64,000 bases of DNA from Adineta vaga. Taxonomy: Eukaryota; Animalia; Rotifera. Location of the stretch: positions 2,294,001 through 2,358,000 of the forward strand of contig CP075496.1 of NCBI GenBank assembly GCA_021613535.1. Direction: 5' to 3'. Every line of letters begins with the position of its first letter. Within the stretch, counting starts at the first letter, position 1. The notes beneath the pieces are model-generated. The model was not told the DNA's origin, did not search any database, and saw only the letters and a program-made list of their open reading frames with translations. The translations under genes and the position numbers were made by a program. Positions 5,584-63,855 of the stretch are shown one piece after another.

Positions 5584-6573
5584 ATGTTCCCACCACAAAG
5601 AGCAACTCAATCGAATAATAATCTTCCACAGAGGTAGATTGAAACTGATTTGAATAGAATTTATTTCATTGTCATTTAGAACATTCGTTCGAACGTCACA
5701 ACTTGTCGAATCTCATGTTGATAAAAAACCGCCAGGACGTCCAACTAGCAATAGTATTGTATGTTCGAGAGAAAAAAAGAAGGAAAATGAATTCAAACAA
5801 ATATACGTTATGTATTTTTATAGCGTCGTCCTGTAGTTTTTGTGATTTACTATTCTATGTACGGTCATGTTGCTAAATTAGCATCGAGTATTCGAATTGG
5901 TGTTGAACGTGCTGGTTGTGATTGTCGTATCTTTCAAGTTGCAGAAACTTTGTCTAATGATATTCTGACGAAGATGCATGCTCCATCGAAAAATATCGAA
6001 ATACCAATTATTACACCTAGTCAATTACCAGAAGCTGATGGAGTTTTATTTGGTATGCCAACTCGTTTTGGCACCGCGCCAACTCAAATGAAAACGTTTT
6101 TTGATGCTTGTGGTGCTCATTGGCTTTCCGATGCATTGAATGGCAAACCTGTAAGGTTTTGTTTCTTCAAGATGTTTATATCTAACTCAGTCTTTATGTA
6201 ATATGATGAAAATAGGCTGGTGTCTTTTTTTCTACAGCAACTTTGGGTGGTGGTCAAGAAACAACTGCACTTTCATGTGTACCATTCTTTACACATCTCG
6301 GTATGATATTTGTACCACTGGGTTATAAAAATAAATCATTAATGAATCTGGACGAAATTCATGGAGGATCGCCTTATGGTTTGTTTGTTTTTTTTAAAAT
6401 TTTTATTTCTCTCTGTATTTTCATGAATACTTATTACAGGTGCAGGAACATTAGCTGGACGACAAGGAGAACGACAAGTATCTCAACTTGAACTTCAGAT
6501 TGCAGAGACACAAGGAATAGAATTTGGTAAAACTGTTTTGAAATTAATTTCTACACGAACTGGGCACACATGA
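5584..6573 (+). CDS. Flavodoxin-like NAD(P)H:quinone oxidoreductase, WrbA/Pst2/Ycp4 family (5 exons)
   Basis: Exons 5584-5633, 5680-5758, 5824-6150, 6216-6378 and 6440-6573 join in frame. Motifs IYYSMYGHV, VAETL, GMPTRFG, QMKTFFDACG, LNGKP-AGVFFSTATLGGGQETT, HGGSPYG-AGTLAG. Confidence 0.92.
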
Positions 6574-11040: not shown

Positions 11041-13143
11041 TCTTTCTCTATCTCTCTTTTCTTATACTCTTAAAAAAAAGAAAGAAACAGAAGAAGAAAA
11101 AAAGTCGGGTAAAAGTGACGATGATGACATGAATATGAACATATAAATAAATATAAAATGATACATAAAAAATACGAAAAGATATATATAGACAACGAGG
11201 ACGTGCAATGATCAATTGTTTAATAGAGTGGAAAATCGTAAGAAGACAATATGGTTTTTTTTCTTGTCTCGATTTCAACAATAATTCCACATTGTGAATG
11301 ACCTTGTCTATTGAGCACTCAATCTTTTTTTATATATAGTAAATCTTGAGAAGACAAAATGAAAGACGTACTTGTCAATCATCGTTGTCGGTGTTCACCC
11401 CTCGAGGAAAAGCTCACTTACTATCAAATAAATATAAAATAATATCAAAGTAGTGCTTTAAGAAAGAAGAAACATGACAAGAAAGAAAAAAAACGAAACA
11501 ATTACTAAGATTCTTAGTCAATTTGTTTGTCTATCAATTCAATATTGAAAATAAAATCACTGAGGGTAAAAGAAACTTGTCAATTATGATTGACTGAATC
11601 AAGGTTAGAATTGTAATTTCTTCTGCTTAGTCTTTTATATTCAATCAATATGAAATGTTCTTTTGGGGATTCTTTAGCGTCTTGCTTGACTGCTACTTTT
11701 AGCTTCATATTTATCCCTAGGGGTAAGCTCTCTGATCACTGGGCGGCACGAGTGATTGCATCATTAGTTTGCGTCTTTGTCATTTTATAATCTACATCAT
11801 TTATTCTCTCTCTGTCTTCTTCATAGTTGATGATGCCAAAATTGAGCGTCGTTTTTTTCTCATTTTTTTCTGTTGTCCAGGCCTTGACAATGCGTAGATG
11901 TATACATATATATATATATATATTGTTAAAGCAAGAACGACAAGGATGTGTCTAATGGAATTTTTGAAATCGACTAGATTTGCTGTCAAGCGGAAGCGAA
12001 GGCATAGTGTGTCGTTCGAAATTCTAATCAGCTTATTGACAATTGAACGTCTAAACAGTCTGTCGAAAATAACAACATGGAAGTACGTATGATCGGGAGA
12101 ATTTATCGGCTACAGGCTTGTTCTTTTTCTTGTCCTTGGCGGTAAGCGAGATATTTCAAATAACAGAAGAAAAAAAGAGTCAATATCATTGTATTAAGTC
12201 GTCCATTCAGTATTTTAAGTGTAAGTGTGATTAGAATAGAAGAGCAAGAAAAACGATGTCATTTATTTTGATCAACATCATGTTCGATGACCCAAGGAGA
12301 AACATAATCATAGAAAAAAAAATCATCTGTAATTATCATAAAAGAAAGGAAAAGAAGAACGAACAATAAGACAAAAGAAAGAAAAGAGAATTATAATTGG
12401 CATTTTCTTTTTTCTTATTATATTGAAAAGCCTTCAGGGAATTGAATTGAATCTTCTAATCGTTTATATTCTATGATATAAATTATCCTTTTTGTTGTGT
12501 GATAAATCCATCTGAAATTTGTTTCTTGAATTGTTAATCTAATCAAACAATTATATGCACATCTTCCCGATGAAAACTGAGAAGAGATATTAATGATCTA
12601 TTTAACAAATACAAGGTCAATTGTACGAAAAAAATATGTTCCACATTTGTCGTACGACTATTTCCGAAGAACTTTTTTTCTATTTCTTTTGGCAATATTT
12701 GTTCAATGTTTGATATGATATCAACCGTTAACTTTTCTTAGAACACTTGCATTTCATACATCAATAGAGAAAATATTCATTTAGATTTCTTCAGTACAGC
12801 GGAAGCAATTTATTCCAGGAATAGATGAAAAAAAAAAAGTGTAACTTTTAGAAAAATTAACTTTCGATATGCATAACCTAATCTTATCAGGTAGAGGAAA
12901 ATATTTTTTTCCAAAGAAGATTGAATGCATTTATTCGGATGACTTTTTACTTTGATACAGATGAAAAAATAAAAAAAACTAATTTCTTATGCAAATGGAT
13001 AAGATTGCAAGAGTTGTTTTTGCTTCTTTCCTCTTCATTGTGTAACGAATAGACATACAACATTGACAAAACTCACTCGAGTTACTTCATCAGATTACAA
13101 GAACGTTTTTCTCCTTTCAAACAACAAATTATCCAAGGAAACG

Positions 13144-13752
13144 ATGCGCTTTTGGACACCATTTCATACAAGTTCAATTGACATCATATCTGATGCTCCA
13201 AACAAGATGATTTTTCGTGCACCAGATCGAATTCGTCTTCAAATGACTGTTGATCATTTGGATTTAAATCAAAAGCCTGGAACATGTTTCACTCATTATA
13301 ATCATCAAACACGTCTATGGGAATGTTTTCATTCACCTCATACAAGTGGTCAACATCGTCTCTTCATTTGGGTTCTAGATAATGAAGAAGATACTCAATG
13401 GGCCACTGCTGTTCGATTCGATATTTATATCAAACGAAAAGGAGAGTTTATCAGTTATCCTACAACAACTAATATATTCAATATACTTCGATGTCAATTA
13501 ATAACACCAATGAATGGACATTTTTCAAGAGAATCTCTTCCAACTGATATTGTTCTTCGTGTACCTAATGTTCGTGATGTACAATTACAAATTGATGAAC
13601 ACACATTAGTTACAGGAGACAATCTTCAAAATGATATTTATAAACTCGTAATTCCAACTAAGATATCCAATGATGTAAAAAGTTTTGTAGTGATGGGTTT
13701 ATGTGCGGATGATACTTATTATTCGACATTAATCACATATAGAATCGAATAA
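13144..13752 (+). CDS. Kyphoscoliosis-peptidase (KY)-like C-terminal beta/Ig-like domain protein, copy 1 (202 aa, no transglutaminase core)
   Basis: First ATG at 13144. FRAPDRIRL...YNHQTRLWECFHSPHTSGQHRLFIW and CQLITPMNG...IVLRVPNVRDVQLQID resemble KY-family C-terminal modules. Confidence 0.55.
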   Translation: MRFWTPFHTSSIDIISDAPNKMIFRAPDRIRLQMTVDHLDLNQKPGTCFTHYNHQTRLWECFHSPHTSGQHRLFIWVLDNEEDTQWATAVRFDIYIKRKGEFISYPTTTNIFNILRCQLITPMNGHFSRESLPTDIVLRVPNVRDVQLQIDEHTLVTGDNLQNDIYKLVIPTKISNDVKSFVVMGLCADDTYYSTLITYRIE

Positions 13753-13823
13753 AAAAAAACTTCGGAAAAATACGTGCGTTTGCTGTTCATGGAATCATCA
13801 ATGTTGTTTCTAATCGAAATAAA

Positions 13824-14453
13824 CTATTCTGATTGAATTGCACTCCAAATTTCATCGAGATTGATTTCTTCAAAGTTCTGCACTGTTCTCCATGTTCCGT
13901 ATTGTTCTAGAGTTTCTTGTTTTGCTGATGTTAATACACCAATACATTTGATTTCAGCAGCAGCACGAACACCGGATACGAAATTTCGAACTCACCAACT
14001 TCAAAGAATACTTTTTCATCAAGTTTTAAAATTCCTAATTCAAAGTCGACAACCAAACGAGGAGCATTGGTTGCTAAACCTATGAACAAAACTACATAGA
14101 TATTTGAAGGAAAATGTCAAGCGTGTATTTTTCACCAATTTTTAATTTTGATCGATTTTGTTTTATATATTCAAGTATTTTGTCAAGACCTCTTGTCGGT
14201 TGGAGTTTCTCTTTAGCTAATTGACGAAATAATAATTCTTTCTTATCCGCTAGTTTCTCTTGTTCCTCTTCAGATAAATGTGACGATAATTCACGAGTTA
14301 TATCAGCATTTAATCGACCTAAACAACATTCATAACATAAGACAAAATCAACTATTTCATTCTAACAGAAATATGCTTATTGAAAAATTCTCGATCAATT
14401 AAAGGTGCATCAGGATTAATTTCAGCGAGAATTATTTGTCCTGCTTCCAAATG
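13824..14453 (-). pseudogene. Truncated pseudogene copy of the HAD hydrolase at 19421-20262
   Basis: Lacks the N-terminal ~18 codons including motif I, the first donor is altered (G|GTAGA to G|TTAGA), and deletions remove the KPKPD cap motif region. Confidence 0.9.
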
Positions 14454-17400
14454 TATATCACATTTCTTTTCTTCAAAACATTTTTTGTATTTAAAACTTT
14501 TATCGAGTATTTGTTTTGTTCTTGTTGACTTTATAATTTCTTTTGTCAATGGAGATCTTCAGTTAAATGTTATAACAGTAAAATCAATTAGCCTTTTTGT
14601 ATTCAAAGAGTTTAACGATTCATAGGTTTTGACTCTCTTCGTTGTGACATTCTGTATAGTGCATTTCGATTTAGAGAGGAAACAATTTCAAGTCGAAATA
14701 CAGCAGCAATCACTAGTTCAATTGATCAGTAATTCATCATAGATTCTGCTCATTTCTGTCTGACTAATATCCAATTAATGCAGAGTAGTTGACCTTTCTC
14801 ATCAAAATAATAAAAATAAATAAACAAAAAGATTTTGAACAAGTATCACATGATCTAAAACTTCCTGTTAGTTGGTCATCAAAAATCATTGTTTTCTTTA
14901 TATCAATTCATATTAATTATTCGAATAGTAATTCTTTAAAAGAGTTCGATGAAATTAATCATGATCGCTTTTATTCCTTTTCTGAAAAAATGGGTTATCG
15001 AGTCGTTAAAAATGCTAAAAATTTATGAGTTTGTCTATGCCAATCAGATGGCAGCATTTTATAACTAAATAAAAACTTAACGATCGTCATCAGTAAAAGA
15101 TTAACCAAAGGTAATCGTGGTCGAGAAACTCGAATTTGAAGTTACTTACTCTTTTTGATTCACTGTTCTTGATCGGTTCTATTGTGTTTTGTCTGCAAAA
15201 AAAAACGTTTACGTAACTTTTTGTTTCAAATGTAAATCTGAGGTATTATATTGGATAATGCTCATAGTTGGAATATACGTCTTTAAAACTATTTAGTAAT
15301 TCTGATTTTGACGGTTATGGTTAATACCAGTTTTACAATGGAAACTATACATGGGGGAATTCGAAGACGTGGTATGAACCTGATATCGGTTTTAATTAAA
15401 TTTTTTTGTACTATTTACAATTTTAAGTCGGATTTTTCAATAGAATTCTAACCGAAATATGTGAGTAGGAATGAGAAACCTGATCCTAATCCTACTGCTG
15501 AATGTTCAAAGGTCTCAGACATATAAGTAACACTGCACATATATGAAGAACTATGCTTGATCAATACGATAGATTCTTTGCGACTCATAGAATAGTACTT
15601 CTACTTTTTGGTTTTTCTCTGAAATAGTATTGACACAAATTAATTGCTTCTTTGGAGAGAAAACGAAAATAGATTCATTTCTTCGATAGGAAAGCAAGTC
15701 ACAAGTGAACGATATTGTGAAGTTATGTAAGTAAAATGAGTAAGAGTAAAATACTTTTTTAGATAGTAGTCAAGTAATTTGGTTCATGAACCAAAGCAAA
15801 TCCTTACCTTATCCTAAGCTTGTTCGCAGGCTTGGTCAAGCGCTGTCATTAGAGATACAGTGACAATTGCAATGCGTTACTTATTATGATTATTCAGAAA
15901 CTTAAAATAACTTGTCATTAAGCATTAAAAAAACTCTGACTGTGAATTCTTTAATAAAGCTACTGAATTCATTGAAGAAATGTTTTTTAAGTAGAAATTC
16001 TGGCGACGTTTGCATCATGTTGCTTTTCATTCTAAAATATTTGAGTATCTTGAGTCTAATTACAATTCTTTCAGAAAAGGGTCAGCGAATGCCAAGGATG
16101 AGCGCTATTTATTCTTTATATGTTTCGATAATTACCATCAATGATTTTATCAAGAAGAAAAAAGACGAAGTATTTTTGAGCATGTTTAGGATAACGTTGT
16201 TGGCAGGCGGTTGAGTGCTGATGTTACTTCGTATTAGACACAGATAATTCCTGGTGATATTTGATATTTATTGAAAGCATAACAATAAGATCGGAGAATT
16301 CTTTTGCCGATTCGCTTCCATTATAAGTACAATAGGATCTCGCTTAATCCGTTAGTAAAGTGGAATAAAAGCCTTATTATATTATGAAGTTGAGCCGATC
16401 TTGTGCAGCCGTTTCTCGAAGTACGATTTTCACAAAAGAACCGTATTGTTTTGCAATGAGTGACAAGTCATCAACTGTTTCTAAAATGAATCAATGTGAT
16501 GAAAAAACAAGATGATTGATAATGTACTTAGCCATATGTTTCCATACAGTTTTAAAAAGGATCCCACCGCTCTACTATTAGACTGACGTTGCTTCTAGAA
16601 GAAAATCATAAAATAAAATTGATTTAAAAACCAATAGAACATGACAAAAGATGTGTCTATAAACTGCAAAGGTCTTTTTGTTATAGAGATATCCAGCGCA
16701 GCTGAAAATCTGCTGCTGCCACGCCGCGATGGTTTTCAAATACATATTTTGAATATCATTGTTGTGACCGCATTGGATTATAAATATTGATGCCAATTCT
16801 TAGAATTCATTTGGTCTCGTGGTGTTTCTACGTAAGCTCACAAATTCGACGAAATTCATGCAGATTTCCAATGTTTGTAAAAAAAATGGATAACACCATG
16901 ATGAATGATATCGACATACCTGTTGTTCAATAATACAATTGTTCATCGAGTGATCTTTTATAGAGAGTAACGAGAAGATAGAAGAATGCTCCTCTGTATT
17001 GTTTGGTCGTTTCGGTTCAGTGAAGGAGAAGAACGTATGACTATATGGTCCCAGCTAAACGGAAAATGAAATATGCTGTTGGCTATCTAAATTGAGTACC
17101 ATTATGTTGTAAGAAATACTCATATTCCATTTTTTTCCCTAGTTTAAATTAAATGAATTTGCTAAAACGAATAAGAAGCAGACAGATTAATAAATGGTAA
17201 TCAATATGGTAAAGGGACAAGAAAAGTTTTTATAGAATATGTATAACTATATATAAAATCAGAATTAAAGCATCTGTCGACTAAGCACATGTACGAAATA
17301 ATGGTCCACGATAAATAAGAGAGAAAGAAAAATTACACTACTAGAACGATCGAGGTCATCATATATGTTAAGTGGACTACCTAGATGAAGTAATATTCAA

Positions 17401-18211: not shown

Positions 18212-18306
18212 TCCCATTCAGGTCATGAAAATCATGACTAATACTGTAATAGACAACACTCAAACGAGAATCTTTTGTTATTAATTGTTTCCCAACACTC
18301 AATGTT
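18212..18306 (-). pseudogene. Degenerate fragment of the Ig gene exon at 9717-9812
   Basis: Encodes TLSVGKQLITKDSRLSVVYYSI versus TLSVGKKLITKDSRLSVAYYSI (5 mismatches in a 67-bp core), followed by a 1-nt deletion and an in-frame stop. Confidence 0.85.
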
Positions 18307-20208
18307 TGATATGATATCATCCGTTAACTTCTCTCAGAACACTTGCATTTCATACATCAATAGAGAAAATATTCATTTAGATTTCTTCAGTACAGCGGAA
18401 GCAATTTATTCCAGGAATAGATGAAAAAAAAAAAGTGTAACTTTTAGAAAAATTAACTTTCGATATGCATAACCTAATCTTATCAGGTAGAGGAAAATAT
18501 TTTTTTCCAAAGAAGATTGAATGCATTTATTCGGATGACTTTTTACTTTGATACAGATGAAAAAATAAAAAAAACTAATTTCTTATGCAAATGGATAAGA
18601 TTGCAAGAGTTGTTTTTGCTTCTTTCCTCTTCATTGTGTAACGAATAGACATACAACATTGACAAAACTCACTCGAGTTACTTCATCAGATTACAAGAAC
18701 GTTTTTCTCCTTTCAAACAACAAATTATCCAAGGAAACGATGCGCTTTTGGACACCATTTCATACAAGTTCAATTGACATCATATCTGATGCTCCAAACA
18801 AGATGATTTTTCGTGCACCAGATCGAATTCGTCTTCAAATGACTGTTGATCATTTGGATTTAAATCAAAAGCCTGGAACATGTTTCACTCATTATAATCA
18901 TCAAACACGTCTATGGGAATGTTTTCATTCACCTCATACAAGTGGTCAACATCGTCTCTTCATTTGGGTTCTAGATAATGAAGAAGATACTCAATGGGCC
19001 ACTGCTGTTCGATTCGATATTTATATCAAACGAAAAGGAGAGTTTATCAGTTATCCTACAACAACTAATATATTCAATATACTTCGATGTCAATTAATAA
19101 CACCAATGAATGGACATTTTTCAAGAGAATCTCTTCCAACTGATATTGTTCTTCGTGTACCTAATGTTCGTGATGTACAATTACAAATTGATGAACAAAC
19201 ATTAGTTACAGGAGACAATCTTCAAAATGATATTTATAAACTCGAAATTCCAACTAAAATATCCAATGATGTAAAAAGTTTTGTAGTGATGGTTTTATGT
19301 GCTGATGATACTTATTATTCGACATTAATCACATATAGAATCGAATAAAAAAAAAACTTCGGAAAAATACGTGCGTTTGCTATTCATTGAATCATCAATG
19401 TTGTTTCTAATCGAAATAAATTATTCTGATTGGATTGCACTCCAAATTTCATCGAGATTGATTTCTTCAAAGTTCTGCACTGTTCTCCATGTTCCGTATT
19501 GTTCTAGAGTTTCTTGTTTTGCTGATGTTAATACACCAATACATTTGATTTCAGCAGCAACGGCAGCACGGACACCGGATACGGAATCTTCGAAGATAAT
19601 ACATGAATTCTTATCGACGTTTAAACGTTTTGCTAATTCCAAGTAAATATCTGGTTTGGGTTTACCTTGATTTTGAAAAACAAACGAATTAAGTGAAAGA
19701 TTCATGTGGAATCTAGAACTCACCAATTCCAAATTCTTCAGCGAGAAGAGCTGCGTCAAAGAATGTTTTTTCATCAAGTTTTAAAATTCCTAATTCAAAG
19801 TCGACAACCAAACGAGGAGCATTGGTTGCTAAACCTATGAACAAAACTACATAGATATTTGAAGGAAAATGTCAAGCGTGTATTCTTCACCAATTTTTAA
19901 TTTTGATCGATTTTGTTTTATATATTCAAGTATTTTGTCAAGACCTCTTGTCGGTTGGAGTTTCTCTTTAGCTAATTGACGAAATAATAATTCTTTCTTA
20001 TCCGCTAGTTTCTCTTGTTCCTCTTCAGATAAATGTGACGATAATTCACGAGTTATATCAGCATTTAATCGACCTAAACAACATTCATAACATAAGACAA
20101 AATCAACTATTTCATTCTACCAGAAATATGCTTATTGAAAAATTCTCGATCAATTAAAGGTGCATCAGGATTGATTTCAGCAAGAATAATTTGCCATGCT
20201 TCGAAATG
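18299..20208 (+). repeat. Direct segmental duplication, copy 2 (partner 12703-14453)
   Basis: See copy 1. Confidence 0.95.
18740..19348 (+). CDS. KY-like C-terminal domain protein, copy 2
   Basis: Differs from copy 1 by three residues (H/Q, V/E, G/V), all near the C-terminus. Confidence 0.55.
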   Translation: MRFWTPFHTSSIDIISDAPNKMIFRAPDRIRLQMTVDHLDLNQKPGTCFTHYNHQTRLWECFHSPHTSGQHRLFIWVLDNEEDTQWATAVRFDIYIKRKGEFISYPTTTNIFNILRCQLITPMNGHFSRESLPTDIVLRVPNVRDVQLQIDEQTLVTGDNLQNDIYKLEIPTKISNDVKSFVVMVLCADDTYYSTLITYRIE

Positions 20209-20262
20209 AATTGGATCAGAATCAACTAATGTACCATCAAGACCAAATAAGATTCCGTACAT
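19421..20262 (-). CDS. HAD-superfamily hydrolase, beta-PGM/CbbY/plant SGPP-like (4 exons); motif I nucleophile reads Gly
   Basis: MYGILFGLDGTLVDSDPIHFEAWQ..IDREFFNKHISG-RLNADI..KKELLFRQLA..KLQPTRGL..G-LATNAPR..FFDA..G-KPKPDIYL..IIFEDSVSGVRAAVAA; all four exons join in phase 1. Confidence 0.88.
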
Positions 20263-26823: not shown

Positions 26824-29800
26824 TCAGATTTTATTGAGCTCAATCATTTTTAGAACATGTTTCACTAATGTACGCTGTGATCCTAATGTAATCGATTTAG
26901 TTCCTCTACACATTTTCATTTGATCATCTTGCAATGTTGGTGAACATTCTTTTGTATGAAATACGTGCATCAAACTTGTATCAATTGTTCGAAAGACATT
27001 TAAAGTTGATGAATGAACTAATTTATCATAAATTTCAACATCTTCTTTTCCCCATCCATTTATTTCCACATTCCAATTTCCAATTGATCCTAAATCTGAT
27101 TTGTAAATTCCAAGCATACCAAAACCATATTGACGCCAATAACCAATATCATCACGTAAATGAAATGATGAAAAATTCATTTGTATTGAATTTGTTTCCC
27201 AATAATGTGGATCATATTGGCTGAAAATAATTGGAAAATAGACTTGTTTATGAAAAATAGTATGATGACGAATACGTGGAAATAAATCACGAGTAAAAAT
27301 CATATCAAGATCGATGAAAAATAATAAATCTGTATCATTAAAACGAGATGCACCATACGAACGTGCATAACCACGTGTGAAATTTCCATTCGGAACTTCA
27401 ATTAAATGTATACGTGATGCTTGCCGATTGGCAATGAATTTTTTTATATAATCAACTATTGTCGACATTTGTTCACCACTTTCTTCAGCTGTTTCCATTA
27501 GAATAACGTAAAGATGTATATTAAGAAATTCCGTATCATTAGAACGCATTACAATATGATCAAAATTCGTTAATAATCGTTTGAGTGTAGGAAGACGTCC
27601 ACTAACAGGTACGATCATATGTATAGGAACGAATGAAGAAGTAGAAGGAGAAGAAGATGTTACAGTCACATTTTTCTTAACAATCACCGGCGAAATTCGT
27701 TCAACAAGATTAGGAGAACCAGCTCCCGAAGAAATTTGTATTGCACTTGAAAAGGAGGAGAATAACTCGCGAAAGTATAGAGGACGAAATTTTTGTACGA
27801 CATACACACGTTTTCGTACAGGAACCTAAATAAAAATATATCATATATAAATTCAATTTATCAACAATTTCTTTCTCCTTCTTTTGATTAAATAACTTAC
27901 CGACATTTTTTTGCCCGAATATTTTCGATAGATAAGAAATAAATCCAGAATATAATTCATTCCATATCTTGGCGTATGTTTATAATAACCATAGAGAGTT
28001 TTTTTATATTCTAAAAATCGACCCATTGTTCTCGAAATTTTATTTACTTCTTCCATATATGTCCGAACTACTTCATCGAAACATTGTTTATATCCTGGCT
28101 CAATTGATCGTACTGGTAATTCAGTATTCGCTGAATATTGGCTAGCAGTAAATAATGTATATACATTAGGTTCATTTATTTCATATGAATAATTGTTTTT
28201 CTGACGAGAAAATTTATTATGATAATTATTTAATGTTTTTGTTCGTCTTAAATGATCATGATTGTTATTATTAATATGATAAGTTTTAATCGAAAGAGAA
28301 GGATCAAATAATGAGCGAAATATTGAATCATTAGATAAGTATGATGATTGGGATGGAGATGGTAACGAAGAACTAATTGATTGACTGAAATATTTTTGTA
28401 AAACTTTCCAAAATTGATGATCTAAAAATTAAATTTGAAAACAATTAGAAATGAAATCTTTAAAACTTCTCGTGTTCTATACCTTGTTGTTCGGGATTAT
28501 CATCAATAAATAATCGATATGTATTATTATATAATGACATAATTTGTTCAGCAATATGGTGATCAGGTTTATTTAAGATTTGATATTGTCGTTTTAATTT
28601 TACTTTAATTTGTTCATTCTTGGTTTTTTGTATTAATTTTGAAAGATTTTTTGCATGAAGTTTTATTTGATTGTTTACAACAATTATTTGATCATAAAGA
28701 CTAATTTGACGTCTCAATAACATATTTCGTTGTTCAAGTTCCATTATTCGTCGTTGTAAAGCAAAATTATGTACACGTGTAAATACACGTATGTCTTTTA
28801 TAGAATGAAGACTAACTGCACGAAGAATATCAGTCGATACAAGATTTGATGCTCGATATCCGTCAGTTTTATTTGGATGATTGTACAAAATATGTTGCAT
28901 TTCATATGACCATGTACATGATGTATTAGCAAATTTATGTACACATCGACCAAGTTCAACATCTTCATGAAATGTATAGAAATTTTTCAGACATTTCTTA
29001 ATATGTGGTGTAAAACGCGCTAAAGTTTCACGCGATAGAATAATTCCAGGTCCACCCATACAAAAATTTTCATTTTCACCTAAAGCTAATTTACCATATT
29101 CATCTTTTGTTCCCATACCTGGTTGACCAATATAATAAGGTTTGCCTAAAAGTACAAAATAGAAATTGTTTGATTTCGAATAACTATTCGATATTTACGA
29201 TTATCGATTGAGCGAAGTAATTTTTCTAAATTATCTGTTCTGATATAAACATCATCATCAACACGCATAAACCATTCGAATTTATTTAAATAATGATCAT
29301 AAATATATTTCATCATTAGAAACGATTTCTTTTGTGGCGGATATGTATCTGTTACTGATGGTAAACTCACAAGATTAATACGTGAATCATTTGTTGTTGA
29401 ACCTTCACTTGAAAAGAATATGACTTGACCAGGTACTTTGTCTGCCCATGTACGCATGACAGTAGGTGCACGTGTAGTTAAGAAATCTTTACTTGTCATA
29501 ACAGCAATCAAAATTAATTGTTTTTTTTGTGAAACACGTGGTAAATTAATTGTTGCGATGGAATTTACTCGAGTGTTATTATTATTATTGTTTAATAAAT
29601 TATTTGACTCATGTTGAGAAGATAAGTCATCTGTAATACAACGTTTAACATTACAAAGAAAAACAAGACCAGATTGAAAACCAATAACAGTAGAGATAAG
29701 TAAAAAAATTAATGATAACCACCATGATGGACCACGAATATTATTTGCAATACGACCATTATGTGGTGATGGTAGTGATTGACGATACGTTTTCTTTGAT

Positions 29801-29894
29801 GGTAAATTCAATTTGTTGGAATTCTAAGTAGAAAAAAATGTTTCATAATTCAATCTATTTACGTTAATTCAAAGAAATCAATCACCTGAGACAT
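26824..29894 (-). CDS. CHSY1: Chondroitin sulfate synthase 1-like
   Basis: N-terminal TM segment; IAVMTSKDFLTTRA, DTYPPQKKSFLMMKY, FEWFMRVDDDVY, FCMGGPGIILSRETL, HEDVELGRCV, FFIDLDMIF, QVYFPIIFSQY, GYWRQYGFGM, GWGKEDV. Micro-exon ATGTCTCAG at 29886-29894. Confidence 0.93.
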
Positions 29895-34451: not shown

Positions 34452-34474
34452 NNNNNNNNNNNNNNNNNNNNNNN
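34452..34474. other. Assembly gap (23 N)
   Basis: Run of N flanked on both sides by CACAAGTT, suggesting an unmerged contig overlap. Confidence 0.95.
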
Positions 34475-48863: not shown

Positions 48864-49299
48864 TTTATCGAATAAGAAAATCTATTTTTATACTTTAGAT
48901 GTAATATATGAAGAATCAAATCATATGGATCCAAAGATTCACGAATGGCGCCATTCACTTGATAAAATTCCTCTCGCAAATAATTGACTTTATTAATCTT
49001 TTGTTCTTCAATAAAACTAATATTTCGTTGTGCTTACTTTTATATGATTAACCTGTAGGAAGAACAGAATGACGAAGAAGAAAAAACTTAATAAATATTG
49101 AAATGTAAGAGAGAAAGCAAGAAAAAAACACAGTTTCAACGATAAACAACAAGAGCGTGGATGATGTGTGTTTTGATTCGAAAGAAAAATGTATTCATCT
49201 TTATTTCTTTTTTGTAAAAAGGAAGAAAAGCAATGTTTTCTTTTTGACACATATATTTCGTGTTTTTCTTATGCATAGTGGACAATAAATAAACGAAAT

Positions 49300-51667
49300 A
49301 TGGGTAATACTCCAGGAGGTTTAATTCATCGATTAAAATATCGAATTACTGGTAAACGTTCATCAAAATCTTCATGTTCATCAGAATTACCATCGCCTAT
49401 GGACACAATAAATCTTGAAACCTTTCTACTTGTTTGGCTTGATCCTAATGTTGATAGTAGCAAAGAAAATTTACATACTCAAAAACGTTTACGAGAAATT
49501 CTTACATGTCTTATCACCTTTGATAATGTCAATGCATGTGAAAAATGGTTGAAAAAATGTTATTCAGATGAAAAAATCATTCTCATTGTATCTGGCTCTT
49601 ATGGACAAGAAATTGTACCAAGAATTCATTATTTATCCAATATTGTATCGATTCATATCTATTGTTTAGATGTGCATCGAAATCAACTTTGGACTAAAGA
49701 TTATCCCAAGATTCGAAGTGTACAATCATCTACCGATGAACTTTTACATGATTTATCATTAAATCAAACGAATCTTGAAAGTGTAGAAGATTCAAAAGCA
49801 TTAAATATTCTTAAACGTCAACAACAAATCTATTCTTTTGATCCGAAAACCGCATCATTTCTTTCGTATCAACTATTCCTTGAAATTCTTATTTCTCCGC
49901 TGTATTTACAATATCCAGCAACATACAATGAATTGATTCAAATCCTTCGTCAATATAATTCAGACAATGAATATGGTTCCGAATTAATCAAAGAATTTGA
50001 ACGAACTTATAAATCAACAAATGCTATTCAATGGTTAATACGTGATACACCATTAGTCCGTTTTCTTAACAAAGCATTACGTGAACAAGATATTCAAATG
50101 ATGTTTGCATTACGTTTTCTTCTTATCGATGTTCATAAACAAATCATTGAACATCAAGTGTCATCATTAAATGTTTATAAAATTCAACCTATGTGTCGAA
50201 TTGATATGGAAAATCTTAAAGCTAATCCCGGACAATTATTAGTTATGAATGGATTTCTTTTTGCTTCAACAAATAAATCTGAAGTGATATCGATGAGTAC
50301 AACAAATGATCAATTTGAAAATGTTCTATTAGATATTCAAGCAGATTATCAATCAGATGCAGCTCCGTTTACTTTTCTTCCGAATATGGAATCAAATCAT
50401 AACAAATCAATGAATCGAGAAGTTCTTTTTATGTGTGGTTCAATATTTGAAGTAGGTCCATTATTAAATGAAGAACTATTTTGGACACTTCATTTAAAAT
50501 TAGTTGGAGAAAGTAAATCACTTGCATTATCTCATATGAAACAAACACTACGCGAAACACAAGATTTATGTCTTGTTGGTGATCTATTTTATCAATGTGA
50601 ACAAATACAACAAGCTGCTATGTATTCTAAAAGATTACTTAGTGATTTACCTAAACGACATCAATTAATTCCAAAAATTAATGAACAATTAACTAAATAT
50701 AGTCAAAATAATCCAAGTAAATAAACACGTCTTCATTTTGTTTTCGATAATTTTTCATTTTTTTTTCTTAGTTTCAAATCAAAATGTTTTATATATTCTT
50801 GTAAATTTATCTGATCATTTAAATGAATTTACATCATCTGTATTACGAATACTTCGTTTGATGACCTCTAAACTTATCTTAACGATTGATGATGAATCAC
50901 CTATTGATTTTTCTCAATGGTCAAAAAGTAATATTTCAATTTTTACTACGACACACTACGCATCTTCATTGGAATGTATTCCAAGAAATTGTCAACTTTT
51001 CATCTTCGATAAAGACAATTCAAAAACAGATCAACAACGATATGCAACTATAGATGATCTAATATGCCAATTAGCAGAAGAAATTATACAGAAATTTCGA
51101 TCCGATGCTGTCAAATCTACGAATATCGGTGATACAACAAAAGCTGCAGAACAAAATGCCAATGCCGAACAAATTTATAGTGAATTAAGAAAATTACAAC
51201 CAACACCAGATCAAACGAAAACATCAGACACTTTCATAGCACCGAGTTTAATTTGGTTGATAAACGATACAACTAATGATGAAATAACTGATTTAATTGA
51301 AAAACAATTTCCCGATTATTTCCAAACTCATTTGACTTTTTATCAAGAAGATGATTTTCATTATTATTTATTAACGAATGATATTCATGCAGATAAATTT
51401 CTTATTCTTTATGGTAATTATTCGAAATCAATGATTGAAAGTTCTCGTCAATTTTCTAATGTTAAATATGTATATCAATATGAAGAATTGAACAAAACGG
51501 ATAAAGATAAACTGCAATATCGTCTAACGTATGATCTTATTGACTATTATGGAAAATTAGGTGAACAATATCGAGCCAATAAGCAACAAAAAAAAGCGAA
51601 ATTAATGTTTTCAAAAGCGAAAAATTTATGTCATTTTTTATCTAAACAATATTTTTCTGACGAATAA
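49300..51667 (+). CDS. ADP-ribosyltransferase-like (R-S-E clade) multidomain protein with degenerate catalytic motifs, 2 exons
   Basis: MGNT start; LETFLLVWLD..IILIVSGSYGQEIVPRIHYL..IHIYC module; AIQWLIRDTPLVRFLNKALREQDI; VYKIQ..GQLLVMNGFLFAS..PF..REVLFMCGSIFEV; TPR-like helices. Phase-1 intron at about 50717-50770. Confidence 0.75.
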
Positions 51668-51692
51668 AATCGAATTCTTTTTCATGTTTTAG

Positions 51693-52250
51693 ATGGGAAC
51701 TATCGAGGATATTGTTTTCGATGATCTTTACTCTCATGGAACAAATCAATTCTTATTACTTGACGATGAGCCACCGAGTACAAATGGTCCGTCACCTACA
51801 ATACCATTACGAAGTGCATTAATACTAACCTTCATACGTGTATTTCGTAAATTACTTCCATGTCAACAGCATGTAAACGAGAATAATCGAAAAATATTTA
51901 CATTGGTTATTTCGAATCAACAACTTATAAATTGGAATAATCTTATCAATTTACTTGATCCTAATCTTGATAAAGTTTATATTTATTCTCGTAGTTATTA
52001 TGATTATATAAGAATGAAACGATGGCATGGATGTTATAGAGATCAAATTCAAGGTGTTTATCAATGTGATAAACTTGATTATAAATTATTACTATTAGGT
52101 GTAGATCATATACATACAGTTAAGGAAGAATGTGCTGACGATCGAGGATTATGCAAACGATTTTCTGCAGATGGACGTAGACTACTTCAAGCATTAGCAC
52201 AATATTTTGATGACGATGAAGATGAACCATTAGGTGAAGAAGCTCAATAG
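51693..52250 (+). CDS. Hypothetical 185-aa protein with a Rossmann/receiver-like module similar to the ART N-terminal module
   Basis: Clean ATG ORF; FLLLDD..IFTLVISNQ..PNLDKVYIYS..W..Y..IQGVY. Confidence 0.65.
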   Translation: MGTIEDIVFDDLYSHGTNQFLLLDDEPPSTNGPSPTIPLRSALILTFIRVFRKLLPCQQHVNENNRKIFTLVISNQQLINWNNLINLLDPNLDKVYIYSRSYYDYIRMKRWHGCYRDQIQGVYQCDKLDYKLLLLGVDHIHTVKEECADDRGLCKRFSADGRRLLQALAQYFDDDEDEPLGEEAQ

Positions 52251-53187: not shown

Positions 53188-54260
53188 TCATGATTATTTT
53201 GGACGGTAACATTTGAAAGTATTTTATTATTGAATGGAAACAATTATACTAATGAAAATCTCGAATTATCTTCTGTAACTAATTATTGGTTAATAAAAAA
53301 TGAAAATAGACAATAAAATCTGTTTTTGTTAGTGATGTATAGTCAGAGAAGTAAAAGTAAATGTTCTTTGATGAATCTAAACACATGTCTTTCGACAAAC
53401 TTGGTTATTCATCTGATTGATCATTTGAATCTTCATTATTTCTCGAATTGAAAGAATCACGTCCAAGAAGTTCATTGTAAATATCAAGTTTTCGGGTCAC
53501 TTTTTTTGCTTTTAAACAACAACAAACTTTATGTCCAACCATACACCATGCACCTTCATCCCAATTGCCAATGCAAGTAGAGCCAGCTGGACAATTTTTA
53601 CAAGTACTGGCACAAATTGGTCCAGCGCCTAATAAGTAGAAAGATAGAACAAATAAAATCTAAAGGATAATTTACCCTCAACTAGTCCAGATCCATATTT
53701 AAGCTTATACAAGCAGAATTGCAATCTTTACCATCTGAAGGAACCTCCGAGCCTTTCATATTTGTTGTCTTGTCTATAACAGCATCTATAGTCTTTCCGG
53801 TCTTTTTAGTTTTTGCAGCACGTTTCTCATCATGTGGATAAGTAGAAACCAAACAAATGCATACAGAGAGAATGATTATCGCACTCTTCATCGTTGTTGT
53901 TTGTTTGTTTGTATGTTGATGAATAAGTAAGAAATAGCTTCGTAGGATTGATCGAAATAATATTATTATGAAAGAAAACTTGCTTCTTTTATACTTATCG
54001 TTGACAAAGAGATAAATATCAAACTATGTGCGAAATCCAGTTTTTATTTTGTCTACTATATTTTACAGTCAGAAAAAGTACCTGACAGTTACTCTTATAT
54101 TGCGAAATGTCACTGAACAACCTTTCTTTACTCCATATTATTCGCACGCAATTTCGCATTTTCATAGATATAATCGCATAATTAAAAAAATGATGAATGA
54201 TTGGATTAAATGTATCGTATTCAAGAATCGATAAAAACAAAGATAACCCAATTGAGACAA
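53188..54260 (-). repeat. Inverted duplication, left arm (~1.07 kb)
   Basis: Reverse complement of 54826-55897; the ORF track also shows mirrored spurious ORFs at 54028+/54852- and 54019-/54819+. Confidence 0.95.
53405..53891 (-). CDS. Secreted 10-Cys peptide precursor A (1-nt frameshift near 53700 as assembled)
   Basis: MKSAIIILSVCICLVSTYPHDEKR-AAKTKK..DGKDCNSACIS(L/K)YGSGLVE-G-AGPICASTCKNCPAGSTCIGNWDEGAWCMVGHKVCCCLKAKKVTRKLDIYNELLGRDSFNSRNNEDSNDQSDE*. Confidence 0.8.
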
Positions 54261-54825
54261 GATTTTTTATCAGAAACATATATGATGTGCATGGAGTGAT
54301 TGGACGTTTCAAAAGAAATAAGCATTCAGTTCAATATTTTTTCAAATAATCCCACATAATTATGTTTATAAATTCTATTGAACTTTCAGTAAACTATAAT
54401 TCAGTCATCTACAGCTAACGAAATACTGCTTTTGATTTAGACCAAAGATGTCTATAATGATATGATAGTAGCAAGAACTCTTGAAAGATAATGCGAAAAT
54501 GCATGAATTTAATCAGAATTTGAATGTTCGGAAGTAAAAAACGATTAGATTCGATCAATAATATGAATTCATAGTGAATCTTTTAATCCGAAACGAATTT
54601 AGTTCCGAAAATTAAAATATTTTTTAAAAAAACTATCAAAGTCGTGATGCAGTTATTTTAAACCATGGCGAACATCTGTGATCTAGAAAAATACTTAAAA
54701 TGATAAAACTCCTAGTGATTGGCAAAATGTCTATACGTTTTACATCACTGCGAAATTTAGCTTTATTAGAGACAGTTTGTATGGTTGTTCAAAATAGATA
54801 CGTTTCCGAAGTATTAGATTGAAGT

Positions 54826-55897
54826 TTGTCTCAATTGAGTTATCTTTGTTTTTATCGATTCTCGAATACGATACATTTAATCCAATCATTTATCATTTTT
54901 TTAATTATGCGATTACATCTATGAAAATGCGAAATTGCGTGCGAATAATATGGAGTAAAGAAAGGTTGTTCAGTGACATTTCGCAATATAAGAGTAACTG
55001 TCAGGTACTTTTTCTGACTGTAAAATATAGTAGACAAAATAAAAACTGGATTTCGCACATAGTTTGATATTTATCTCTTTGTCAACAATAAGTATAAAAG
55101 AAGCAAGTTTTCTTTCATAATAATATTATTTCGATCAATCCTACGAAGCTATTTCTTACTTATTCATCAACATACAAACAAATAAACAACAACGATGAAG
55201 AGTGCGATAATCATTCTCTCTGTATGCATTTACTCAGTTCTTGCACATGAAAATGAAGACAAACGTTTGGTGCCCGCTGTTTTAGTCAGTGGAGGACTTA
55301 CTGCTGCTGATAGTCTGTTTAATGGAAAAGTATTGATCGGTGATCCAAATAGTAAAGATTGTAATGCTGCTTGTAAAAGCAAAAAATTTGCATTTGGGCA
55401 AACCATCGGTAAATTTGGTTTTTGATTTCGTTTCTTCTATATATCTGCTTATTTAGGTACTGGACCCTTTTGTGCTAGCAGTTGCACTGATTGTCCAAAA
55501 GGTTCGAAATGTCTCGACAATTGGGCTGAAGGAGGATTGTGCGTATTTGGACATAAAGTTTGTTGTTGTTTAAAAGCAAAAAAAGTCACCCGAAAACTTG
55601 ATATTTACAATGAACTTCTTGGACGTGATTCTTTCGATTCGAGAAACAATGAAGATTCAAACGATGAATCAGATGAATAACCAAGTTCGTCGAAAGACAT
55701 ATGTTTAGAATCACCAAAGAACATTTACTTTTACTTCTCTGACTATACATCACTAACAAAAACATATTTTATTGTCTATTTTCATTTTTTATTAACCAAT
55801 AATTAGTTTCAGAAGATAATTCGAGATTTTCATTAGTATAATTGTTTCCATTCAATAATAAAATACTTTCAAATGTTACCGTCCAAAATAATCACGA
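54826..55897 (+). repeat. Inverted duplication, right arm
   Basis: See left arm; unique spacer at 54261-54825. Confidence 0.95.
55195..55680 (+). CDS. Secreted 10-Cys peptide precursor B (intact, 2 exons)
   Basis: MKSAIIILSVCIYSVLAHENEDKR-LVPAVLVSGG..SKDCNAACKSKKFAFGQTI-G-TGPFCASSCTDCPKGSKCLDNWAEGGLCVFGHKVCCCLKAKKVTRKLDIYNELLGRDSFDSRNNEDSNDESDE*. Phase-1 intron at about 55409-55456. Confidence 0.88.
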
Positions 55898-62957: not shown

Positions 62958-63855
62958 ATGCGGACTCTATTTGTTATTCTTCTTTCTTTTCAATTGTGTA
63001 TTATTACACATCAACAAGGTTAGTACTATTGAACATAGAATACCTTACATATATAAATCGATCATATAAAATCAAGATTATACATTACCATTTCTCTTCA
63101 AGTTGTCACTCTATTTTATTGATAGTTGTTTCATTGGAAAAAGAGATGCTATATGCGTTACATAGAAAATGATGTCGTATTAAGTTTTGTCTTAGATTAA
63201 TATTATCATTTGTTTATACAGGTGGAAGATATGTAGTTGGCTTAGGAGATTCATTCACATCTGGTGGTGGTTCAAAGTCGTATCCACACATTGCTGCTGG
63301 ATTATTAAATTGGCAAGTACGTAATTTTGCTGTAGGTGGCTCAAAAACACACAATATATTTACACAATTAGTTAGCGCTGGTACTGTCTTACCTTTAGCA
63401 ACTCATGTTGTTTTAACAATTGGTGGTAATGATTTGAATGGAATTGGAAGTTTAGTAGATATTGCAAAGGTTAATATCACATTATTTGAAGAGAAATGTG
63501 ACAAATTTAAGCCAACACTCGTATCAACTTACAATCAAATCAAAGCTGCCATTCGTCCTGAAGCTAAAATCTATGCTCTACCGTATGTCGATTTCACAGT
63601 GTTGGTAATAAAATTCCATATGAGCTTGAATCTCATCAAATACTTCAAGCATTAAATAAAGTTGTTAAAAATGCAGCTGCTGAAGCAAATATTAACTATG
63701 TAGATACTGTAGTATCGGCATTTCTTGGCCATGAAATGTATTCATCTGATCCATACATCGATAGTTTCCAACATCCAACAAATGCAGTTCATCCTAATTT
63801 GAAAGGTTATGCCAAGATCGGACAGGTTCTTGCTGCTTATTTGCAAGCAAATTGA
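62958..63855 (+). CDS. Secreted SGNH/GDSL hydrolase, microbial SEST-like; 1-nt frameshift at about 63595 as assembled
   Basis: Signal-peptide exon MRTLFVILLSFQLCII; block I VGLGDSF, block II AVGGS, block III LTIGGND; after the frameshift AFLGHE..NAVHPNLKGYAKI (block V). Confidence 0.82.

Follow-up and report, generated by a model that had tools for sequence, protein, structure and literature searches.

How can two neighbouring genes be almost identical in their promoters, their first codons and their ends, and yet enclose between these parts a core, intron included, that has diverged as far as that of old paralogs? This question is raised by a locus of the bdelloid rotifer Adineta vaga, located in a stretch of 64,000 bases of contig CP075496.1 (hereafter the window, to whose first base all coordinates refer) that has a G+C content of 30.3% and a single run of 23 N at 34452-34474. 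The locus consists of two genes placed head to head, L on the minus strand and R on the plus strand, each of which is predicted to encode a small secreted precursor with a domain of ten cysteines. We somewhat favour the reading that L and R are old paralogs whose flanks have been kept alike by gene conversion between the two inverted arms in which they lie.

Comparison of the sequence within the window showed that the arms are inverted around a unique spacer of 565 bp (54261-54825), which separates their promoter-proximal ends. The left arm (53188-54260, minus strand) comprises gene L with 369 nucleotides (nt) upstream and 216 nt downstream of it, and the right arm (54826-55897, plus strand) comprises gene R with its flanks; two inverted arms of about 1.07 kb around a 565-bp spacer had already been described in an earlier, sequence-only reading of this DNA. 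That reading had also put the upstream region at about six mismatches and had called the first 12 codons, the tail and the 3' flank nearly identical, and the counts bear this out, with 6 mismatches between the arms in the 369-nt upstream segment, 0 in the first 36 nt (12 codons) of the coding sequence, 5 in the 127-nt segment of the C-terminal tail and 7 in the 216-nt 3' flank. Overall, these flanking segments are 96-100% identical. In a global alignment of the arms there are 149 differing columns, 131 of them in the core and 18 in the flanks, the latter being divided into 6 in the 369-nt upstream part and 12 in the last 343 bases. The core extends from codon 13 to just before GHKV and includes the intron, and the list of mismatches places its sharp borders, to the base, where they had been proposed, at 53539-53854 in L (minus strand) and at 55232-55546 in R (plus strand). 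Within the core, the identity between the arms is 52% in exon 1 past the first 36 nt, 73-75% in the intron and 68-69% in the part belonging to exon 2. The 60 nt beyond each arm end are merely 23-25% identical, and no further copy of the arms, the spacer or the peptides was found elsewhere within the 64-kb window.

Exon 1 of gene R (55195-55408, plus strand) is open from its ATG and encodes a hydrophobic N-terminus, the sequence HENEDKR, an extension of about 29 residues and CNAAC, which contains the first two cysteines. It is followed by a GT..AG intron of 48 nt in phase 1 (55409-55456), with an exon join that matches the database protein P0003, and by exon 2 (55457-55680), which contributes eight cysteines (GTGPFC...GHKVCCC) followed by a basic patch and an acidic tail, and which ends with the stop codon at 55678-55680. 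The R precursor has 145 amino acids (aa), arranged as hydrophobic N-terminus, HENEDKR, 29-residue extension, 56-residue ten-cysteine domain, basic patch and acidic tail. Gene L is read on the minus strand through exon 1 (53676-53891, with the ATG at 53891), a GT..AG intron of 47 nt (53629-53675) and exon 2 (53405-53628), the last encoding GAGPIC...GHKVCCC, then a basic patch and an acidic tail, up to the stop codon at 53405-53407. As had been claimed, the position of the intron is kept in both copies, in phase 1 and just before G[AT]GP[IF]C. The accompanying claim that both cores keep all ten cysteines is correct for R, and it holds for L only across a frameshift. In the window, exon 1 of L has 216 nt, is one base short of an open frame at 53698-53703 and runs into an in-frame TAG, which had been overlooked when the left gene was taken to read through. 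In all four public read sets compared (X1, X2, X3 and X5, see below) an extra A is found at full depth behind 53703, so that the reading frame of L is restored, and three of the four also differ from the window at 53695 and 53699. The frameshift is likely to be private to the window assembly, either as an assembly or polishing error or as a rare allele, with L being intact elsewhere. A TATA-like motif, TATAAAAG, noticed by eye and a motif only, is located 95-102 nt upstream of the R ATG (55093-55100, plus strand), and the near-identical upstream arm carries its mirror copy for L at 53986-53993. Rfam and tRNA scans of the window gave 0 matches.

In GenBank both genes are annotated as hypothetical proteins, namely I4U23_017866 [Adineta vaga] (P0003), the database protein that is 100% identical to the product of R exon 2, and I4U23_017865 (P0004) for L. 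The model of I4U23_017866 has its first exon in the spacer (54700-54778, plus strand) and splices from there to 55285, bypassing the ATG at 55195 together with the signal peptide, while that of I4U23_017865 starts at an internal Met, uses another donor and steps over the frameshift. We prefer the starts at 55195 and 53891 because the frame is open, the first 12 codons are identical between the copies and, in relatives of the domain, a hydrophobic leader adjoins it. The GenBank models are probably mis-annotations of two small secreted-peptide genes, and both products are predicted to enter the secretory pathway. For the exon-1 product (P0001), no protein of 39-126 aa sharing words with exon 1 was found. 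Of the runs X20, X21, X23 and X24, one of unknown kind contains a contig of 151 nt and depth 2 over 53260-53410, and otherwise only short pieces of unrelated sequence were obtained; these contigs are uninformative on expression, start codon and splicing. The presumed identifiers FUN_017865 and FUN_017866, a guessed mapping, gave no match in the searched parts of the supplements of PMC10809525, PMC12220480 and PMC8494291.

The age of the parts was assessed by Nei-Gojobori estimates of synonymous (dS) and nonsynonymous (dN) divergence, and alignability was tested against 500 shuffles. In the exon-2 core (30 codons) the proportion of synonymous differences (pS) is 0.64, with dS 1.42, dN 0.29 and a dN/dS of about 0.2, and in the tail (43 codons) pS is 0.12, with dS 0.13, dN 0.02 and a dN/dS of about 0.16. 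Both the intron and the exon-2 core are still recognisably homologous, with identities of 0.75 versus a shuffle mean of 0.60 and of 0.68 versus 0.56, respectively, and in neither case did any of the 500 shuffles reach the observed value. From codon 13 to just before the first cysteine (123-126 nt), the identity is 0.56 versus 0.55 for the shuffled sequences, 193 of 500 being as high, and the stretch from the KR site to the first cysteine is also predicted to be disordered, with a predicted local distance difference test score (pLDDT) below 50. The cysteine domain is old, keeps a conserved framework and is under purifying selection. It is not the hypervariable mature peptide that had been supposed, since only the stretch of approximately 30 residues that follows the KR site, up to the first cysteine, is scrambled. 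Because the intron has diverged too and dS is saturated, positive selection alone is not the cause of the contrast between core and flanks, as had been argued from the sequence. Moreover, the flanks, among which are non-coding promoter and 3' sequence, are much younger than the core, a combination that positive selection cannot give.

The window was compared with the contigs of four public runs, each from a different study (X1, X2, X3 and X5); according to the caveat of the tool, the depth of a contig is one figure for that contig and not a copy number. In X1, the contig of the L core (53509-53884) has a depth of 35.2 and that of the R core (55202-55576, with 0 differences from the window) a depth of 42.1, whereas two long, unbroken outside contigs (10,098 and 3,590 nt) stand at 39.4 and 40.7, and the shared flank contigs reach 75 (53191-53538) and 76.2 (54917-55231). 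The two core depths thus sum to 77.3 in X1, against 75-76 for the flanks, and in X2 they sum to 389 (149.9 plus 239.2), against 347.5 and 339.9. The core contigs of X1 break 30 nt (k-1) from the core borders, as they do in a de Bruijn graph where sequences part, and a further contig of this run, with a depth of 36.9, covers the spacer (54140-54946) and extends into each arm by 120 nt. All four read sets contain the two cores, with 4 or fewer substitutions per 287-377 nt. X1 and X2 have zero cover at 55622-55815, which was not used as evidence. Taken together, the contigs give good but indirect support to two single-copy homozygous cores lying head to head between two-copy flanks, and, with the same good but indirect support, the depths in X1 and X2 fit the absence from these samples of any third core with such flanks. 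The suggestion that the payload is swapped was not borne out, the same two cores being found in every read set at depths that fit exactly two cores sharing the flanks.

The pattern would be explained if an ancient duplication within the rotifer lineage had given rise to two peptides, both of which were kept, and if homologous repair between the close inverted arms had since then repeatedly copied the promoter, the 5' untranslated region (UTR) and the first 12 codons from one arm to the other. A separate conversion tract would copy the segment from GHKVCCC to the tail, together with the 3' UTR, from arm to arm. Such tracts would stop at the core, either because its divergence of 31-48% blocks the extension of heteroduplex or because identical cores are selected against. 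The read sets add a hint in this direction. X1 and X2 contain one contig of two-fold depth over 53191-53538 (3' flank and tail), the sole difference of which from the L arm of the window is at 53498, where it has the state of the R arm; the window arms differ from each other at 11 positions in this segment. X3 and X5 hold the R-type 3' flank of the window (55715-55894, with 0-1 differences). Hence the identity of the arms varies between samples in a mosaic manner, as conversion would give.

It was also observed that the contigs of X3 and X5 that fit the arms continue into unlike sequence at 53290, 53947, 55139, 55911 and 55929. The pair 53947/55139 corresponds to one junction 56 nt upstream of the ATG, and X3 and X5 may carry a structural variant or a further copy of the promoter.

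Several points weigh against old paralogs with converting flanks. The flanks of the window differ by 1.6% (5') and 3.5% (3') between the arms, and these residual differences imply that conversion is not continuous. The intron is 25% different while the exon-2 synonymous sites are 64% different (on merely 18.8 sites), and a single old divergence predicts otherwise; the short intron may be under constraint, or the core itself may be a mosaic of ages. The copy-number argument is built on per-contig depths, and a third donor copy or an ohnologous locus is possible. As to the genes themselves, the GenBank models of both differ from ours and omit the signal peptide, which we judged by eye from the same hydrophobic N-terminus in both genes, and the start codons and splices of L and R are predictions from the sequence, their expression being presumed.

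The main rival explanation is the import of a cassette, in which a unit of 1.07 kb underwent a recent inverted duplication and one core of 315 bp was then replaced from a third, old paralog. The donor could be, for instance, a copy on the homoeologous chromosome of a paleotetraploid, and A. vaga is reported to be a paleotetraploid whose chromosomes form homoeologous pairs (PMC8494291). In its favour, both sharp borders are accounted for at once by one tract of about 315 bp, and they are located in the signal peptide and GHKVCCC, parts that every paralog should have in common. However, protein searches returned no third A. vaga protein of the family and none that shares exon 1, bearing in mind that small genes easily go unannotated. 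Furthermore, the flank depth in X1 and X2 equals the sum of just two cores, and the differences in flank identity from sample to sample indicate that homogenisation occurs anyway. We consider an import unlikely.

It is much less probable that L is a pseudogene in decay, with a mosaic pattern that is only a relic and no longer has a function. The frameshift and the in-frame TAG in exon 1 of L in the window could be taken in this sense, as could the fact that the GenBank model of L (P0004) needed another donor and an internal Met, but the missing base is present at full depth in the four read sets, L keeps all ten cysteines, the KR site and the splice sites, and dN/dS is about 0.2 across the cysteine domain. 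Finally, although the first A. vaga assembly contained palindromes that were subsequently attributed to faulty scaffolding of phased haplotypes (PMC8494291), a misjoin of two haplotypes of one gene into a palindrome can practically be dismissed here, given that the X1 core depths match those of the outside contigs instead of being half of them, that the shared flanks are doubled, that a single contig bridges the spacer from arm to arm and that both cores recur in four of four read sets from four studies, so that the read-set contigs, when checked for collapsed or misjoined haplotypes, back two cores joined across the spacer.

We now turn to the domain that the conversion between old paralogs would have left untouched. 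Its framework can be written as C-x3-C ... G-T-[AG]-P-[FI]-C-x3-C-x2-C-x3-5-C ... C-x2-G-x-K-V-C-C-C; R carries all ten cysteines and L, read across the frameshift, does so too. A phmmer search against 1.84 billion representative proteins yielded 13 matches with E <=0.001, 10 of which were counted as real (E 2e-33 to 5e-4), the best E value of the protist relatives being 6.6e-12. P0014 and P0015 were dropped from the family, their match being limited to a short WAEGG-like stretch, and so was P0016, a low-complexity CCC repeat. A profile search gave 8 matches and added four more clusters, and a tblastn scan of metagenomes detected 6 loci. Besides A. vaga, the named sources are Chromera velia, with Cvel_18711 and Cvel_18712 as neighbouring numbers, and transcripts of the amoeba Luapelamoeba hula; the remaining relatives come from marine metatranscriptomes and metagenomes and from environmental eukaryotes. 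The likeness to a GTAPFC motif that had been noticed in the rotifer sequences is genuine, the literal motif being present in relatives, while the label "fungal-type" given to it finds no support in these sources.

In an alignment of 8 sequences, C52, C73, C80, C96, C104 and C105 are invariant, and an alignment of 18 sequences keeps P71, C73, C80, C96, G99, K101 and C104, with the Chromera proteins and the four-cysteine members being without the first cysteine. Variants with 4, 8 or 10 cysteines occur in the family. One relative has at least four four-cysteine modules separated by KR sites, in another a C-type lectin domain (E 3e-9) is fused to two modules, and in a third, three modules are joined to a part that weakly resembles an endonuclease/exonuclease/phosphatase (E 0.009, which does not reach the Pfam cut-off). 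L and R come out as sisters (support 96/86) on long branches in a short, unrooted tree of 24 modules, where an environmental protein adjoins the pair (87/81). The leaders of the two-module relatives P0012 and P0018 resemble, by eye, the rotifer leader in a stretch 'AIII[FL]S..IY', a likeness that is either due to chance in A+T-rich coding sequence or a hint of a related-animal source.

None of the libraries consulted contains this domain. Pfam-A returned 0 families for the exon products P0001 and P0002 at E <=0.01 and 0 for the annotated proteins P0003 and P0004 at E <=1, and on the module region of the relatives it gave merely sub-threshold or off-target rows. By sequence, the PDB had 0 matches for P0002 and for the family profile (alignment A1) at E <=10, and a Protein Atlas search gave no usable match. 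Of 6 pattern matches in viral contigs and 103 in a single-protein scan of prokaryote genomes, which finds close relatives only, 0 were confirmed as relatives. In the literature, the string 'GTAPFC' had no match, and a search combining Adineta vaga, antimicrobial peptide and cysteine-rich retrieved nothing about such genes. The proposal of an undescribed family was thus upheld in the Pfam, PDB-sequence, fold and literature searches, and we describe it here as a small family of ten-cysteine domains absent from the libraries used.

With the 18-sequence alignment, AlphaFold2 modelled the annotated R protein with a pLDDT of 79-91 over residues 51-110. The predicted elements are a helix over CNAAC and three strands, the last of which runs over KVCCC, and in the model of a marine relative, which is less confident, the elements follow each other in this order too. 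In the family as a whole, members with 0, 1 or 2 upstream cysteines end in C, CC or CCC, respectively, and loss of the fourth cysteine goes with loss of the sixth. From this covariation we infer a helix stapled to the last strand, as in peptides with a cysteine-stabilised alpha/beta fold (CS-alpha/beta), and a pairing of C4 with C6; the domain would then have five disulfides, with CxxxC joined to the terminal CCC strand. None of the searches with the models yielded a convincing relative. For model 1, Foldseek gave no row at E <=0.001 and 18 rows at E 5-10 (best 5.4), among which the defensins had E 7-8.5 with a probability of 0.08 or less; on a second look, 0 of the 18 chains reached a Z of 2. 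VIA-align over 48,161 chains gave 4 rows for model 1, of which the best three, considered with a beta-defensin-like fold (trans-defensins) in mind, are AvBD11 (avian beta-defensin 11, Z 2.3), helianthamide (2.2) and crotamine (2.1); these weak rows include an amylase inhibitor and a neurotoxin (Z 2.1-2.2). The second model gave 0 rows in Foldseek and 0 in VIA-align. These failed searches do not show the fold to be new.

In comparison with its relatives, the rotifer pair shares with the protist GTAPFC...GxKVCCC proteins a homologous domain, with the ten-cysteine spacing in 21 of the 28 non-Adineta proteins examined, and with protist and environmental relatives a hydrophobic leader (judged by eye) adjoining the domain and, in one member, KR between modules. 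The relatives differ in their number of modules, from one to four or more, and of cysteines (4, 8 or 10), and none of them is characterised. They are without the rotifer's N-terminal extension of about 30 residues and its 36-residue basic/acidic tail, their open reading frames (ORFs) are uninterrupted at the site of the rotifer intron, and their loci have 44-57% G+C, compared with 30% in the window.

Precursors of a similar general layout are known from several groups of animals. Macin, mytilin and myticin precursors consist of a signal, a basic cysteine-rich peptide and an anionic C-terminal extension; the rotifer precursors share this layout and differ in their cysteine pattern, with no Pfam-A match. 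The precursors of frogs and cone snails are also laid out similarly, but they form large families with positive selection in the mature part. The mussel MgCRP-I peptides, as described in PMC4558851, likewise have secreted precursors with a conserved signal and pro-region, KR and a variable cysteine-rich part. Nevertheless, they have no sequence relation to the rotifer pair and carry 6 instead of 10 cysteines, and their paralogs are numerous and show positive selection on the mature peptide (PMC4558851), in contrast to the two rotifer copies with a dN/dS of about 0.2 in the cysteine domain. Since the conserved parts of the rotifer genes include the non-coding promoter and the 3' flank, they point to homogenisation at the level of DNA rather than to constraint at the level of protein.

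Gene conversion from arm to arm is known in palindromes, for example on the primate Y chromosome, and models exist for peaks of divergence between converting duplicates. The rotifer locus has in common with such palindromes the inverted arms, the short spacer and a very high arm identity that differs between samples; it differs from them in size (1 kb versus tens to hundreds of kb) and in the island of 315 bp per arm that escapes homogenisation. By analogy, it would appear closer to arm-to-arm palindrome conversion with an escaped island than to families of the MgCRP-I type. At the level of the peptide, the comparison is with the cis-defensins (CS-alpha/beta), which are small and secreted, as is predicted for the rotifer peptides, with CxxxC on a helix, predicted in the rotifer, followed by GxxC and by CxC, here within CCC on a predicted strand. 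The differences are the absence of a Pfam match, Foldseek E values of 7 or more, the five disulfides predicted for the rotifer peptides and a longer insert between helix and sheet. The CS-alpha/beta pairing is deduced here from the pattern, the predicted secondary structure and the covariation of the cysteines.

As for the function, the precursor would be cut after KR behind the signal peptide and perhaps also at the basic patch after CCC. Its predicted secretion, the KR site, the small, basic, disulfide-rich domain, the acidic tail and the relative with several modules separated by KR fit host-defence precursors, and we tentatively regard a possible role in defence or as secreted effectors as the likeliest. 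The main alternative, which we regard as somewhat doubtful, is that of an extracellular binding, inhibitor or signalling module, such as an enzyme inhibitor or a protein that binds glycans or lipids, rather than an antimicrobial one. It would agree with the relative fused to a C-type lectin domain, which fits extracellular recognition, with the weak endonuclease/exonuclease/phosphatase-like fusion, with the purifying rather than diversifying selection on the domain and with the amylase inhibitor and the neurotoxin among the weak fold rows. The domain of R is only mildly cationic (net charge +3), which also speaks for such a module and against defence, and neither model found in Foldseek or VIA-align a structural relative pointing to a function. 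Against a binding or inhibitor module, the small size, the predicted secretion, the KR-flanked modules and the acidic tail after a basic domain fit defence precursors at least equally.

The taxonomic distribution of the domain makes it plausible, though we hold this view with reserve, that the rotifer acquired it horizontally, because L and R are the only animal matches, every relative with a named source comes from a protist and bdelloids have a reputation for carrying genes of foreign origin (PMC8494291). The named relatives outside Adineta are those of Chromera and Luapelamoeba; no other animal is named, and most relatives are environmental. A more elaborate and rather improbable version would be that a protist-derived secreted module was given a rotifer signal peptide, pro-piece, intron and acidic tail, and that two functionally distinct versions of it now occupy a mini-palindrome of 2.7 kb in which ongoing conversion synchronises regulation and processing and halts at the payload, the fold being one without a solved relative.

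Other features of the window were recorded in passing. Just upstream of the pair, 49279-52250 (plus strand) contains three consecutive open frames of 481, 324 and 185 aa with no Pfam match, possibly one large uncharacterised gene. A direct repeat at 12703-14456 and 18299-20211, with copies about 5.6 kb apart and 98% identical over 1,296 plus 456 nt, has in each copy an open frame of 249 aa without Pfam match. The four large open frames at 26824-29823 (minus strand), which match chondroitin N-acetylgalactosaminyltransferase and Fringe-like proteins (with E values as low as 3e-74), read as an ordinary animal glycosyltransferase gene with few short introns. Two open frames may be foreign-gene candidates, one at 5824-6201 (plus strand) matching NADPH-dependent FMN reductase/flavodoxin (E 8.5e-9) and one at 63173-63655 (plus strand) matching GDSL-like lipase (E 1.3e-9); families of the FMN reductase/flavodoxin and GDSL types are often bacterial in type.

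At present, L and R stand as two annotated hypothetical genes, and the mechanism that keeps their flanks alike is an inferred one. They are the first animal members of a small family of ten-cysteine domains that folds confidently in prediction. If they are antimicrobial, the peptides would represent a new scaffold, and if they were acquired, they would exemplify a foreign effector fitted with the regulatory and processing parts of its host. The locus would offer a compact natural case, readable at base resolution, of conversion between inverted duplicates combined with the keeping of two different products, in an animal known for the breakage and repair of its DNA and for its foreign genes.

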